Shown: positions 3,262 through 8,066 of the stretch, piece by piece
Layout: each line of letters begins with the position of its first letter
Numbering within the stretch: position 1 is the first letter of the stretch
The notes under the pieces: generated by a model
Seen by the model: the letters and a program-made list of their open reading frames with translations, nothing else
Told to the model about the DNA's origin: nothing
The model's database searches: none
Assembly: GCA_963755715.1 (NCBI GenBank)
Contig: CAVWLW010000032.1
Location: forward strand, 22,564-86,563
DNA: 64,000 bases
From: an uncultured delta proteobacterium
Lineage (GTDB): Bacteria; Desulfobacterota; Binatia; UBA9968
Direction of reading: 5' to 3'
Translations under genes and position numbers: made by a program

Positions 3262-4809
3262 ATGGCCAGCGATAGCGATCCGCATGAATATCTAGGAGAC
3301 GGACTTGGCTCGGCAAAGAAGCCGCATGCCTGCGTGCTGGTGATTTTCGGCGCGTCGGGCGATCTCACCAAACGCAAGCTCATTCCCGCGCTTTATAATC
3401 TCGCGCTCGAGAAGCGCTTGCCCGAGCGCTTTGCCGTGGTCGGCTATGCGCGCAGCGAAATGACCGATGAGTCGTTCCGCGACAAAATGCGCGAAGCGGT
3501 CAAAGAGTTTTCGCGCACCGGGTTGAAGGACGACGTCTGGCAGCAGTTCGCCAACACGCTGTATTACGTGCGGGGAGGCTACGAAGAAAACGATGGCTAC
3601 CAGAGCCTTAAAGAATTTGTCGACGGCTTCGATCGTGGCAGCAGAGTTCTACCAGCGCGAGTTTTCTATTTGGCGACCCCGCCGGATCTCTATGGGAAAG
3701 TGATCGAGAGCATTGCCACGGCGGGATTGGCGCCGAAGGACACCGATGGCGAGCCGCGAACGCGAGTGGTAATCGAAAAGCCGTTCGGCACCGACTTGCA
3801 AACCGCGCGCGAGCTCAATCGCCGAATTCACGAATTCTTGGATGAGCGGCAAATTTACCGGATCGATCATTATCTTGGCAAAGAAACCGTGCAGAACATC
3901 ATGGTGTTCCGTTTCGCCAACGCGGTGTTCGAGCCGATCTGGAATCGACGCTACGTCGACCACGTGCAAATCACTGCGGCGGAATCGGTGGGCGTGGAGA
4001 ACCGCGGTGGCTATTACGAACAAGCCGGCGTGGTGCGCGATATGTTTCAAAACCATTTGCTGCAGCTGCTCTGCATGACGGCGATGGAGCCGCCGGTGGG
4101 TCTCGATGCCGACTCGGTGCGCGATGAGAAAGGTAAGCTGCTCAAGTCGGTTCGTCCCGTAGCGTCGGAGGAAGTCGCGGCGGCGGCGGTGCGCGGTCAA
4201 TACGGCCCCGGCAAGATGGACGGTCAGGAAGGGGTCGGCTATCGACAAGAGCCCGGCGTCGCTAAAAATTCAACGACCGTGACCTACGCGGCGATCCGGT
4301 TCTTCATTGATAACTGGCGCTGGGAAGGCGTGCCGTTTTATCTGCGCTCGGGCAAGCGCTTGGCCAAGCGCGTCTCCGAAATCGCCATCCAGTTTAAGCG
4401 CCCGCCGATGCTGTTGTTCAAGTCTCACGCCGTGGAAGACGTCAACCCCAACGTGCTGGTCATGCGCATTCAGCCCGATGAGGGAGTCTCTTTGACCTTT
4501 GAAGTCAAGCCGCCCGGACATGACATGATTATAAAACCGCTGAGCCTCGATTTTAATTATGAGGAAGCCTTCGGTAACAGCCCGCCGGAGGCGTACGAAA
4601 CGCTTCTGGAGGACTGCATCGAGGGCGATTCGACGTTGTTCACGCGGCATGATTGGGTGGAGTTGGCTTGGTCGCTCGTGGATCCGATTATTCAGGTCTG
4701 GAATCTGAGCAGGCCGAGAAATTTTCCAAACTATGAGGCCGGTTCCTGGGGGCCCAAAGAAGCCGACGATTTCATGGCGCGCGAGGGCCGGCGCTGGCGC
4801 CGGCCGTAG
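3262..4809 (+). CDS. zwf: Glucose-6-phosphate 1-dehydrogenase
   Basis: 515 aa. Carries the G6PD signatures GASGDLTKRKLIPALYNL and RIDHYLGKE. Confidence 0.92.
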   Translation: MASDSDPHEYLGDGLGSAKKPHACVLVIFGASGDLTKRKLIPALYNLALEKRLPERFAVVGYARSEMTDESFRDKMREAVKEFSRTGLKDDVWQQFANTLYYVRGGYEENDGYQSLKEFVDGFDRGSRVLPARVFYLATPPDLYGKVIESIATAGLAPKDTDGEPRTRVVIEKPFGTDLQTARELNRRIHEFLDERQIYRIDHYLGKETVQNIMVFRFANAVFEPIWNRRYVDHVQITAAESVGVENRGGYYEQAGVVRDMFQNHLLQLLCMTAMEPPVGLDADSVRDEKGKLLKSVRPVASEEVAAAAVRGQYGPGKMDGQEGVGYRQEPGVAKNSTTVTYAAIRFFIDNWRWEGVPFYLRSGKRLAKRVSEIAIQFKRPPMLLFKSHAVEDVNPNVLVMRIQPDEGVSLTFEVKPPGHDMIIKPLSLDFNYEEAFGNSPPEAYETLLEDCIEGDSTLFTRHDWVELAWSLVDPIIQVWNLSRPRNFPNYEAGSWGPKEADDFMAREGRRWRRP

Positions 4810-4834
4810 AGGCAAGAAAAAATTCGAGCTCACC

Positions 4835-4905
4835 ACGAAGGTCACGAAGGGTTCGGATATTATTGGTTCCTGGCTTCGTGCTCTTCGTGTCCTTCGTGGT
4901 CAGAA
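4835..4905. repeat. Long hairpin built from repeated CACGAAGG / CCTTCGTG units in the zwf-glk spacer
   Basis: ACCACGAAGGtCACGAAGG … CTTCGTGctCTTCGTGtCCTTCGTGGT. The arms are reverse-complementary. It may act as a terminator, attenuator or REP-like element. Confidence 0.45.
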
Positions 4906-4912
4906 GTGAACC

Positions 4913-5914
4913 ATGGCTCATAGAAATCTCGTTCTCGCGGGCGATATCGGCGGCACCAAGACCAATCTCGCGCTGTTTTCCGTGCACGGCGACAAGCTGC
5001 GCTCCGAGTCCCAGCGCAATTTTCCGAGCAAGCGTTACTCCGGTTTGATCCCGGTTGTGCAGGAATTTCTCGCCGGCGGCGATCACGCGATCGATGCCGC
5101 GTGCTTCGGCATCGCCGGTCCGGTGGTCGACGGCAAAGTCAAGACCCCCAACCTTCCCTGGATGCTCGACACGGCGGAATTGCGCCACGCGCTCAAGCTC
5201 GATGCGGTCACCTTGCTGAACGATCTCGAAGCAGGCGCCTACGGCATCTTCACGCTCGAGAACGATGAATTTTACACTTTGAATGAAGGCACGATGCGCC
5301 AAGCCGGAAACAAGGCGCTGATCGCCGCCGGCACCGGCTTGGGGCAAGCGATCTTGCACGATGACGGGCACCATTTTCATCCGTTGGCATCCGAAGGCGG
5401 CCACGCCGATTTCGCGCCGCGCAATGAATTGGAAATCGAGCTGCTGCGCTATTTGCTCGCGCGGTTTGGTCACGTAAGTTATGAAAGAGTGGTATCGGGG
5501 CCCGGACTGCTCAATATTTACCGATTTCTCAAGGACGCGCGCGGGCTCGAAGAGCCGGCGTGGCTGACCGAGCGGCTCGCGGCCGCGGATGATCCAAGCG
5601 CGGTGATTTCACAGGCGGCGTTGGCTAAAGAAGCGGAGATTTGCGTCGAGGCATTGAATCTCTTCGTGACGGTTTACGGCGCGGAGGCGGGCAATCTCGC
5701 GCTGCGCGCGAAAGCGGTGCGCGGGCTTTACGTCGGCGGCGGCATCGCGCCGAAGATCCTCGACAAGCTCAAAGACGGCACATTCATGAAAGCTTTCGTC
5801 GATAAGGGGCGGTACACGGATCTTTTGGCGGCGACACCGGTTCAGGTCATTTTGAATCCGCAAGCCGCCTTGCGCGGCGCCGCTTACTACGCGGCGTTTC
5901 TTGCCCGTGATTAA
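4913..5914 (+). CDS. glk: Glucokinase (Glk family)
   Basis: 333 aa. N-terminus [17 protein letters not shown], then typical Glk-family core motifs. Confidence 0.85.
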
Positions 5915-6548
5915 ACGCGACATCATTATTTGCCACGACGCTGATGAGCTGGCGCGAAAGGCGGCGGAACAGTTTGTTTCTCTCGCCGACGCCGCGATCG
6001 CCCGATCCGGACGATTTACCGTGGCACTGTCAGGCGGATCGACGCCGCGGGCATCTCTTTTGGGGTGATGAGCGCTGCGTGCCGCCGGATCACGCCGAGA
6101 GTAATTACCGCATGGTTCAGGAGGCGCTGCTGTCGAGAATCAGCATTCCAGCCGGAGAATATTCACCGCATGGCGGGCGAAAAGGAGCCGCGCGTAGCGG
6201 CGAATGAGTACGAAGAGGAATTACGCAGGTTCTTTGCTTTGCGCCGGCCAGTACGGCCTCGCTGCTTTTCCCGGCGGCGCGGCGCTCAATCAAAATGAAC
6301 GTCTGGTGGCAACTGCTTACGTCGAAAGACTCAGAGCCCACCGCCTGACGCTGACTTTGCCGGTCATCAACGCTGCGGCGCAGGTTACCTTCCTGATTGC
6401 CGGGCAGAGCAAGCGCGCCATCGTGAACGAGATCTTGCGGTCGGACGCCGACTCATTCAAGTATCCCGCTGCGCGGGTGAGCCCAAGCGACGGACAACTG
6501 ACCTGGTTGATCACCGCTGACGCCATGGAAAATTTGCCGATTCGATAA
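5908..6548 (+). pseudogene. pgl: 6-phosphogluconolactonase, disrupted by at least three frameshifts
   Basis: The GTG start overlaps the glk stop. Frame 1 has …[12 protein letters not shown]. Frame 2 has [28 protein letters not shown]. Frame 3 has …[12 protein letters not shown]…. Frame 4 has …FPGGAALNQNERLVATAYV…TFLIAGQSKRAIVNEIL… through to the stop. All pieces align to the DevB/Pgl family in order. Confidence 0.75.
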
Positions 6549-6619
6549 AAGCTTCAATCGAATCCCCGCGGCACGAGCTAGAGTTGCCAGAAATTATCTG
6601 TCAGTGAAGGGAGCGCGCT

Positions 6620-7342
6620 ATGAGCGGCTATAACTACGAGAGCTTCGGACAGTGCGATATCGATGCCCCGGATTTTTGGGCAGTTGCCACGATCGGGACG
6701 AAGGCGCCGGATTTTAACTTGGCGGATCTCGACGGCAATCTGGTTTCGCTGTCGTCGTTTGCCGGCAAGAAGCATGTGTTGTTGGAATTCGGCAGCATCA
6801 CGTGACCGCCGTTTGTGGGGGAGGTTCCTCCGCTGACCAAACTCTACCGCGAGTATCGGACGGCAAATTTTCAGTTCTTCATCGTTTACGCCCGCGAAGC
6901 TCATCCCGGGGAAAACTATCCGCACCATACTTCATTGGAACAAAAGCTGGCGCACGCTCGCACGCTGCGCGACTTGGAGCAGATCCAGGAAATTCCGATT
7001 CTCGTCGACGATTTCGCCGGGACAATGCATCGCGCTTACGGCCTCCTGCCGAATATGACCTATCTGATCGACCGCGACGGTATTGTCGTTTACAAGTCCG
7101 ATTGGGGCGATGCGCAGGAAATCGATGGCGTGTGCGCAGCCTCGTCCGACGTCGACGAAATGAAGGCGAATAACGTACCGATCATTCGCCAGGGAATTTC
7201 CCAGCGACTCCACTGGATTCCTATGGACCCCGTGCAGCGCGAACGGGTTTACCGGCGCTCGGGAGAAAAAGCGATTCGCGATTATTTGAACGCGCGCGGC
7301 AGCTTGCCTTACGCGACCGATGCGGAGAAGGCTAAGCGGTAA
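6620..7342 (+). CDS. Iodothyronine-deiodinase-like thioredoxin-fold selenoprotein (in-frame UGA at 6803-6805 read as Sec)
   Basis: ORFs 6620..6805 and 6815..7342 are in the same frame, separated only by TGA. The joined sequence is …KAPDFNLADLDGNLVSLSSFAGKKHVLLEFGSIT-U-PPFVGEVPPLTKLYREYRTANFQFFIVYAREAHPGENYP…. This matches the deiodinase active-site signature FGSxTUPPF and the downstream (V)YIxEAH motif. Confidence 0.75.
6811..6840 (+). ncRNA. Candidate bacterial SECIS hairpin for the deiodinase-like gene
   Basis: GUUUGuGGGGGAGGuuCCUCCgcugacCAAAC begins 6 nt 3' of the UGA. It has a GGAGG/CCUCC inner stem, a G/U-containing apical loop and a GUUUG/CAAAC outer stem. Confidence 0.4.
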
Positions 7343-7466
7343 GAAGAAAGCGCTAAGAGTGTTCGAGTATTGGGCGAAAATTAAATTTTGCTCTAGCTCG
7401 CAAAGTCCGCTCTGGATCGCGCAGAAAGCGGCTGTTTGAGAAACACGGGCTCGACGCCGAGTTGCT

Positions 7467-8066
7467 TTACGTCGCTATTTGATCTTGACCAGTTGCTGGT
7501 GAATCTGCTGCGTTCGACGGGCGTTTCTTGTAATCGACCTCGATAAATTTCCAACGCACGACGCCCTTCGGATCGACGATGAACGTCGATGGATGCGGCC
7601 AGCCCTTGCCGTCGGGGTTGAAGACACCGTAGCGGTTGATCACCTTGTGATCTTTATCTTCGAGCAGCGGAAAATCGAACTCGCCGTCGAACCGTTTGCT
7701 CAGCATTTCGCCGAATTTTTTCGACTCCTCGTGGGTGTCGACGCTGACCGCGAGGATTTGCACTTTCTCTTTTTCCTGCTTCGACAATAAACTTTTCAGC
7801 TTCCCGAGCTGTTCCATGCAGAAGGGTCACCAGTAGCCGCGATAGAAAACCAAGACGACGGTCTTCTTGTCGCGGAACTCCGATAACGCGATGGTCTTGC
7901 CGCCGGCATCTTCGAGGGAAAAATCCGGCGCCGGCTGCCCGACTTTGATGCGGTTTAGATCGGTCGGACTCAGATCGGCGCCGTCTTTCGGCCCCAATTG
8001 AGCGAGCACGGTGGTGCTTGAGAGCAAGATTGCAAAAAACGCAGCCAGGAAAAATCTTATTCCCAT
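7467..8066 (-). CDS. Secreted peroxiredoxin/AhpC-TSA-like thiol:disulfide oxidoreductase selenoprotein (in-frame UGA at 7827-7829, motif W-U-P-F-C)
   Basis: ORFs 7827..8066 and 7467..7817 share a frame and are separated by a single TGA. The joined sequence is a signal peptide (MGIRFFLAAFFAILLSSTTVLA) followed by …GQPAPDFSLEDAGGKTIALSEFRDKKTVVLVFYRGYW-U-PFCMEQLGKL…FPLLEDKDHKVINRYGV…STFIVDPKGVV…. The Prx fold is conserved and Sec replaces the first Cys of CxxC. Confidence 0.75.
7795..7815 (-). ncRNA. Candidate SECIS hairpin for the Prx-like selenoprotein
   Basis: On the mRNA, CAGCUcgggaAGCUG starts about 15 nt 3' of the UGA. It has a 5-bp stem and a GG-containing loop. Longer-range CUUCUGC/GCAGGAAG pairing is possible. 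Confidence 0.35.

Follow-up and report, generated by a model that had tools for sequence, protein, structure and literature searches.

The 64,000-nucleotide stretch of contig CAVWLW010000032.1 analyzed here (hereafter the window), from an uncultured delta proteobacterium, carries on its forward strand a gene for a deiodinase-like protein whose reading frame is interrupted by a single in-frame UGA codon. The list of open reading frames (ORFs) contains two entries in this region, 6620..6805 (61 amino acids, ending in ...LLEFGSIT) and 6815..7342 (175 amino acids), that share one frame. Upon translation of 6620-7345, the TGA at 6803-6805 proved to be the sole interruption of that frame within 6620-7342, and the joined translation amounts to 240 residues. 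Around the UGA, the joined product reads LLEFGSIT-U-PPFVGEV (where U denotes selenocysteine, Sec), followed by FFIVYAREAHPGENYP. Its N-terminus, MSGYNYESFGQCDIDAPDF, is hydrophilic and, as judged by eye, lacks a signal peptide or membrane anchor. The coordinates of this gene, of the elements within it, and of its neighbors are collected in Table 1.

Table 1. Features of the deiodinase-like locus, in positions of the window.
Feature	Position	Strand	Remarks
Complete coding sequence of the deiodinase-like selenoprotein	6620..7342	+	240 codons; Sec at codon 62; TAA stop at 7340-7342
In-frame UGA, Sec codon (U62, catalytic residue)	6803..6805	+	From the aligned-codon survey and the Dio3 alignment
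Bacterial SECIS-type hairpin within the coding sequence (codons VGEVPPL)	6815..6833	+	Stem 6815-6822/6826-6833; loop GGU 6823-6825
S59-I60-T61 of FGSIT-U	6794..6802	+	S59 = Dio3 Ser167, T61 = Dio3 Thr169; T61 invariant and S59 nearly so (25 members)
Codons 90-99, YAREAHPGEN	6887..6916	+	Y90 = Dio3 Tyr197, E93 = Glu200, H95 = His202; R92-N99 invariant (25 members)
H103	6926..6928	+	= Dio3 His219 (Dio2 His182), last member of the proposed proton relay; invariant
C172, candidate resolving Cys of the U-P-P-F clade	7133..7135	+	Invariant in 18/18 clade members
C12, alternative candidate resolving Cys in the flexible N-terminus	6653..6655	+	Present in 15/18 clade members
Shine-Dalgarno-like GGGAG	6609..6613	+	6 nt 5' of the ATG at 6620; read from the sequence only
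zwf - glucokinase - pgl, then deiodinase-like gene	3262-6548, 6620-7342	+	Gene order
Second UGA-containing gene, AhpC/TSA-type redoxin	7467-8066	-	UGA 7827-7829; hairpin ~7797-7811; convergent with the deiodinase-like gene

The joined protein behaves as one domain. With the stop written as Cys, Pfam T4_deiodinase (PF00837) matched residues 18-163 in one alignment that spans the TGA (E = 1.3e-15; 57.8 bits, gathering score 27). Redoxin scored about equally (59.6 bits), and AhpC-TSA reached 55.2 bits (cut-off 26). The NCBIfam model NF038285 "deiodinase family protein" (deiodinase_rel, 347 residues) aligned its positions 177-327 with residues 24-163 (E = 1e-24); this score of 87.7 bits did not reach the curated cut-off of 250 bits, and only the C-terminal half of the model was matched, its additional ~175 N-terminal positions having no equivalent in the window protein. 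In a sequence search of the PDB, the best match was the catalytic core of mouse Dio3 (4tr3, a SeCys-to-Cys mutant; E = 3.4e-12, residues 18-163), then Dio2 (9h48), both ahead of ResA-type oxidoreductases and peroxiredoxins; similarity to ResA/TlpA/DsbE proteins and to BCP/AhpE-type peroxiredoxins was weaker by several orders of magnitude than that to Dio3. An earlier note, made from the letters of the window alone, had proposed a single gene with an in-frame UGA at a deiodinase-type active site, containing FGSxT-U-PPF and a YxxEAH region. The one frame, the one Pfam domain across the codon, and the survey of homologues below all bear this out, as do the PF00837 and Dio3 matches for the kinship with deiodinases; in the Dio3 alignment, FGSIT-U-PPF and YxxEAH stand opposite FGSCTCPPF and IYIEEAH of the mouse enzyme.

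The identity of the codon at residue 62 is strikingly constant among homologues. A scan of one genome per species with the pattern REAHPGEN recovered 80 loci, and we determined which codon stands opposite residue 62 in each of the 93 homologous matches: it was TGA in 85, TGC in 3, TGT in 1, TGG in 2, TAA in 1, and TCA in 1. Both TGG entries are the same contig fetched twice, and the TCA entry is a frameshifted fragment at a contig end. Cys is thus an occasional occupant of this codon (4/93), the orthologues do not terminate there, and the natural replacement for Sec in homologues is Cys, not Trp. The nearest loci from the genome scan (full-length, 64-78% identity) come from metagenome-assembled genomes (MAGs) labeled Candidatus Binatia, "Deltaproteobacteria," Syntrophobacteraceae, and Thermodesulfobacteriota, with one Verrucomicrobiia and one Acidobacteriota, while remoter ones (33-50% identity) belong to Chloroflexota, Actinomycetota, Acidobacteriota, Rhodospirillaceae, Burkholderiales, Nitrospiraceae, and a Nitrososphaerota archaeon. 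Of the 30 other supported genes in the window, 15 end in TGA as an ordinary stop. We therefore rejected an alternative genetic code and take the recoding to be site-specific.

Public gene calls do not reflect this arrangement. A search of 5.8 billion predicted proteins retrieved 389 relatives, and nearly all of the best 120 were 173-181 amino acids long and started at a Met or Val right behind the UGA, indicating that gene callers truncate these genes at the same place. In syntenic long contigs, whose protein is 96% identical, the gene is annotated as a pair of 61 and 175 amino acids, so that splitting and truncation both occur as the earlier note had anticipated. Its statement that deiodinase homologues are rare in bacteria did not hold: a family profile built from 25 diverse members matched at least 1855 proteins, many of them full-length Cys-forms, and the genome-scan matches extend over Binatia, Thermodesulfobacteriota, Chloroflexota, Actinomycetota, Acidobacteriota, Proteobacteria, and a Nitrososphaerota archaeon. 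Some public protein records (P0001, P0121, P0124, and P0131) show Trp at the Sec position. We examined P0001 as a candidate Trp-form homologue and rejected it, since its DNA (L087, 347-349) reads TGA and the W is the source's translation of that codon.

Only one gene has a true TGG. It lies on a 7.5-kb contig (JACQUW010000361.1, L001/L012) with three deiodinase-like paralogues, whose active-site codons stand at L001 positions 3088, 4044, and 6936; these are of the UPYC type (TGA), the U-P-P-F type (TGA), and the U-P-P-F type with the true TGG (Trp) at the active site. The TGG copy may be a paralogue that has lost its activity, may have mutated recently, or may owe its TGG to a base-call error. 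In a Candidatus Binatia MAG (JBGPIK010000065.1, L015 position 3184), the Sec codon is replaced by TAA while the hairpin and the downstream frame are intact; either recent pseudogenization or an error in the sequence could explain this orthologue.

Just 3' of the UGA, the coding sequence can form a hairpin of the kind known as a selenocysteine insertion sequence (SECIS). The conserved helix consists of 8 bp (GUGGGGGA/UCCUCCGC) with a GGU apical loop and begins 9 nt past the UGA, whereas an extension that starts at ~6 nt is part of the minimum-free-energy fold but is not conserved. Accordingly, the hairpin of the earlier note and its GGAGG/CCUCC inner stem stand, while the 6-nt spacing that it gave is replaced by 9 nt for the conserved element. 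Such a bacterial hairpin recruits SelB and Sec-tRNA(Sec).

Our case for this hairpin builds on comparative data and not on fold energy. Across 16 distinct orthologues, 99.2% of the 128 pair cells were standard pairs, and the single break was found in the TGG paralogue, a copy that no longer needs a SECIS. We then considered synonymous sites in 15 TGA orthologues (64-78% protein identity). The stem codons GTG, GGG, GAG, and GTT were fixed in 15/15, although elsewhere in the same genes they make up 33%, 20%, 57%, and 22%, respectively, of their synonymous sets. The first Pro codon of the stem is always CCY (Ser TCC in two orthologues), pairing with G, and the second is always CCR, pairing with U, whereas the two Pro codons immediately 5' of the stem vary freely. 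Other subfamilies encode a different peptide at this place (e.g., ALAAPAL) and have a hairpin in exactly the same register. In an ungapped, UGA-anchored alignment of 70 distinct Sec-encoding members, 71.4% of the paired cells could pair versus 56.9% in shuffles, and the covariation score was 0.378 versus 0.162 (0/500 shuffles reached the observed value in either case). Compensatory double changes occurred in 6 of the 8 stem pairs, the true register outscored every slid register, and the first loop base (G21, in the loop at 6823-6825) was G in at least 90% of members. In the published description (PMC1088965), a bacterial SECIS is a stem-loop that follows closely behind the UGA and whose small apical loop contains G; in position and loop, the predicted hairpin matches that description.

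The active site around U62 closely resembles that of the animal deiodinases. U62 aligns with Sec170 of Dio3 (Cys in the crystallized mutant), and all seven residues for which a role in the Dio proton relay has been proposed (PMC11592359) are identical in the sequence alignment with the window protein: S59, T61, U62, Y90, E93, H95, and H103. In an alignment of 25 diverse bacterial members, these positions are invariant or nearly so; REAHPGEN serves as the bacterial family's signature, and K109, D130, G134, G141, W162, and G215 are further invariant positions. As in animal DIO1-3, represented by the mouse Dio3 core (4TR3/4TR4) and Dio2 (9H48), the Sec would sit at the N-terminus of helix alpha1, within FGSxT-U-PPF, in a thioredoxin (Trx) fold with a peroxiredoxin (Prx)-like N-terminal module. 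The recoding element differs, being a bacterial hairpin in the coding region here and a SECIS in the 3' untranslated region in animal Dio.

A structure model of a family member agreed with this assignment. For the orthologue P0002, an alignment of 27 close sequences gave a predicted local distance difference test score (pLDDT) of 50, and we used diverse full-length Cys-forms from the profile search instead; the resulting AlphaFold model (44-row alignment) had a pLDDT of 93.5 and a predicted template modeling score (pTM) of 0.91, with lower confidence in the N-terminal block (pLDDT ~61). When this model was searched with Foldseek, Dio3 ranked third and Dio2 tenth, and these two had the highest query TM-scores among the 50 matches listed (Dio2 0.58, Dio3 0.56). 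Residues ~183-240, a loop and three helices conserved in the family, form a C-terminal extension of ~60 residues that is covered by no Dio structure, nor by any other solved structure among the matches listed.

Within the family, the window protein belongs to a distinct clade. Its motif is U-P-P-F, while most members have U-P-(Y/F)-C or U-P-M, and reviews of 2022 and 2026 give the family motif as UxxC (PMC9312934, PMC13188914). The window protein lacks this UxxC; because the motif column of the review tables describes a representative, we read its absence as the mark of a sub-clade and not as exclusion from the family. Cys172 and Cys12 of the clade are absent in the other subfamilies, which carry Cys at U+3. 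We infer that one of these two, most likely C172, may replace the U+3 Cys as the resolving thiol. Scored against the catalytic fragment of Dio3, U-P-P-F members reached 43-65 bits and UPYC members 20-42 bits, making the U-P-P-F clade the most Dio-like of those sampled.

Several side observations concern the diversity of these genes. Directly after the invariant C172, at ~7138-7151 on the forward strand, the window gene departs from the 96%-identical contigs by a -1/+1 frameshift that compensates itself, so that it reads C-A-A-S-S-D-V-D where its relatives and the clade consensus read C-A-S-L-V-R-V-D; strain variation or a sequencing error may account for this. Three loci (L009, L010, and L018) contain a tandem pair, in which a UPYC-type deiodinase-like selenoprotein gene comes no more than ~1 kb after the U-P-P-F gene, and in L020, a UPYC gene adjoins a partial deiodinase-like match. 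Among the Cys-form variants (P0127, P0134, P0137, P0152, P0154, P0155, P0158, P0160 (L033, a Nitrososphaerota MAG), P0170, P0172, P0187, and P0210), probably archaeal forms read EFGC(S/T)TCPPF, with an additional Cys at -3. Another group reads FGCITAPVF, with Ala at the Sec/Cys position and only the -3 Cys left, which hints at a shifted catalytic residue.

Upstream of the deiodinase-like gene and on the same strand lie genes for transaldolase/PGI, zwf, glucokinase (glk), and pgl. The same-strand order zwf-glk-pgl followed by the deiodinase-like gene recurs in five loci (L005, L007, L008, L013, and L022) from at least three differently labeled taxa, and this recurrent position suggests a link to NADPH supply. 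A looser association was seen in a Nitrospiraceae locus (L075), where pgl and glk lie near a UPM-type member. In the window, the reading of pgl itself (5901-6548, forward strand) moves from frame 0 to 1 to 2 and back to 0, and each of the pieces carries typical Pgl motifs. Near-identical ENA contigs break pgl at different places, which suggests indel errors of long-read assembly, not a shared pseudogene.

On the downstream side, a convergent gene for a Prx-like selenoprotein is followed by genes for an SDR, an epimerase, KAS, a methyltransferase, an FAD monooxygenase, and thyX. The Prx-like product matches Pfam AhpC/TSA (E = 1.4e-35) and has a signal-peptide-like N-terminus and the motif FYRGYW-U-PFC; a short hairpin, CAGCU-CGGGA-AGCUG, lies 15 nt past its UGA. 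Gene callers split this gene, too, into genes of 79 and ~110 amino acids. It is syntenic in L002-L007 and L013, and similar W-U-PYC genes adjoin deiodinase-like genes in L011 and L068. We count this second UGA-containing redoxin gene next door in support of Sec decoding. A scan of the window for other UGA-interrupted redox ORFs returned only these two genes, no second deiodinase-like copy was found in the window, and a promoter and terminator scan gave nothing above shuffle expectation.

Taken together, we read 6620-7342, with high though not complete confidence in the overall explanation and its proposed mechanism, as one gene in which UGA62 is recoded to Sec and whose product is a soluble member of the bacterial deiodinase-like selenoproteins (PF00837). 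The recoding via a conserved SECIS-type hairpin, the deiodinase-like catalytic fold, and the relay residues we regard as demonstrated or strongly supported. In the proposed mechanism, the Sec62 selenolate at the N-terminus of helix alpha1 of the Trx/Prx-like fold would attack an electrophilic atom of a small substrate. This atom could be a halogen, like that of deiodinase substrates, or the oxygen of a peroxide. The leaving group would be protonated via a deiodinase-type hydrogen-bond relay, S59-T61-Y90-E93-H95-H103, and the oxidized selenium (Se-X or Se-OH) would be resolved to a selenenylsulfide by Cys172, or Cys12. Re-reduction by a thioredoxin/NADPH system would then close the cycle, which fits the position of the gene behind the NADPH-producing zwf-glk-pgl.

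A number of observations weigh against this reading or parts of it. The 64-kb window yielded no selA, selB, selD, or tRNA-Sec: scans found no tRNA of any kind and no SelB P-loop or SelD motif, and the 20 long ORFs that were scanned in the section from 17 to 62 kb all belonged to other families, none of them a sel family. The fold energy of the hairpin region is by itself unremarkable (z = 0.18), no Rfam model matched the hairpin at the gathering threshold (at E <= 10 only bxd_2, which is noise), and the 5' arm does not vary within the clade, which leaves only one-sided stem changes there. The modeled protein is not the window protein but the orthologue P0002 (69% identical, full-length). Compared with the animal enzymes, the center of loop-D is 9 residues shorter in the window protein, and the counterpart of Dio3 Asp211 is therefore missing; the invariant W162 takes the aligned place of Dio3 Arg275, for which a role as carboxylate clamp has been proposed; and the proximal Cys168 and distal Cys239 of Dio3 are absent, as is, by eye, the N-terminal membrane anchor of Dio. 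Clustering of the neighborhoods of the 80 loci revealed no partner conserved across the family, and the Prx-like neighbor is, given its signal peptide, probably located in another compartment. Lastly, we found in the literature no functional study of, or reported activity for, any bacterial family member.

The window protein thus has neither the thyronine-binding residue (Dio3 Arg275 or Dio2 Lys241) nor the full Dio loop-D (omega-loop). Since the relay is conserved while loop-D, Arg275, Cys168/239, and the anchor are not, the catalytic machinery appears deiodinase-like and the thyronine-binding parts do not, and thyroid hormone is an unlikely substrate. What the enzyme might act on can be proposed only tentatively: judging from its conserved residues, it may act on a small phenolic compound and strip it reductively of a halogen or some other X+, and we lean to halogen abstraction because the conserved network is deiodinase-specific.

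The protein could instead be a genuine selenoprotein that works as a thiol (selenol) peroxidase, with Sec62 reducing H2O2 or organic hydroperoxides in the manner of Prx or glutathione peroxidase and without any dehalogenation. A redox-defense context, with NADPH-producing zwf-glk-pgl upstream and a Prx-like selenoprotein adjoining, speaks for such a role, as does the view that most bacterial selenoproteins of this fold are redox or antioxidant enzymes (PMC1088965, PMC9312934). We consider it slightly less likely than halogen abstraction: the E93/H95/H103 network has been described as a deiodinase feature (PMC11592359), and a plain reading of the sequence suggests that the Prx PxxxT/SxxC motif around U62 and the catalytic Arg may be absent.

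Activity as a ResA/TlpA-like thiol-disulfide (selenol) oxidoreductase, acting on a specific protein or on a low-molecular-weight disulfide, would suit the UxxC redox motif of most family members and the CcdA-like and TlpA-like genes found near UPYC-type relatives in some Chloroflexia loci. The U-P-P-F clade, however, lacks the UxxC cysteine (and any CxxC), the window protein has no signal peptide, export signal, or anchor, unlike ResA and TlpA, and the deiodinase-specific E/H/H network also sets the clade apart from ResA/TlpA/DsbE and BCP/AhpE-type proteins. With the invariant REAHPGEN/H103/K109/D130/W162 set suggesting a defined small-molecule pocket, we judge this activity unlikely.

That the UGA does not encode Sec at all, and instead marks a pseudogene, two small genes, Trp or Cys read-through, or an alternative genetic code, is highly improbable: the absence of visible Sec machinery from the window, the true TGG in one L001/L012 paralogue, the TAA of the L015 orthologue, and the indel-type damage in the window (the pgl frameshifts and the compensated frameshift in the deiodinase-like gene) would favor it, but it is countered by a TGA at the exact codon in 85/93 loci across phyla with protein conserved on both sides, a single domain spanning the codon, a downstream hairpin under selection whose sole mismatch occurs in the TGG copy, the use of TGA as a stop in half of the other window genes, Cys and not Trp as the substitute in homologues, and a "W" in P0001 that is a caller's rendering of a real TGA.

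The recoded deiodinase-like gene belongs to a family with a longer history. Sec- and Cys-containing bacterial deiodinase homologues with a bacterial SECIS were reported in 2005 from the Sargasso Sea metagenome by Zhang, Fomenko & Gladyshev, who remarked that their role is probably another one, perhaps in redox chemistry (PMC1088965), and a "deiodinase-like protein" (PF00837) appears, with function unknown, in the 2022 and 2026 lists of prokaryotic selenoprotein families (PMC9312934, PMC13188914). The novelty implied by the earlier note was hence too high. The window gene shares with the cataloged family its PF00837 match, the UGA aligned with Sec/Cys, the hairpin directly downstream, the bacterial origin, and a presumed redox role. 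It differs in having U-P-P-F and an invariant Cys172 in place of UxxC, and in its carriers, which are Binatia, Thermodesulfobacteriota, and Syntrophobacteraceae MAGs, versus marine plankton for the family as first reported; our literature search returned nothing on selenocysteine in Binatia. Modestly new are the U-P-P-F motif, the invariant Cys172, the presence of all seven relay residues, and the position downstream of zwf-glk-pgl in several lineages.

The picture of what this family is remains unchanged by these findings. They do show that public gene calls for the family are systematically wrong, through truncation to ~175 amino acids, a split into 61 and 175 amino acids, or a Trp at the Sec codon, and the locus offers a clean worked example for repairing such annotations. 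It is likewise a good positive control for selenoprotein finders, with a SECIS encoded by an invariant VGEVPP whose synonymous sites are frozen, such that RNA and protein constraints act on the same bases. On the question of what bacterial deiodinase-like selenoproteins do, now ~20 years old, the clade offers handles: U-P-P-F with a complete relay, C172, and the zwf-glk-pgl position. As a speculation to which we give little weight, the U-P-P-F clade might be the closest prokaryotic lineage to the ancestor of the animal deiodinases, and its enzyme might be a true selenium-dependent reductive dehalogenase whose substrates are naturally occurring iodinated or brominated phenolics of soil and sediment, with NADPH from the adjacent pentose-phosphate genes. 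If true, bacteria would have a second route of dehalogenation, one independent of cobalamin, and thyroid-hormone deiodination would have a functional origin.

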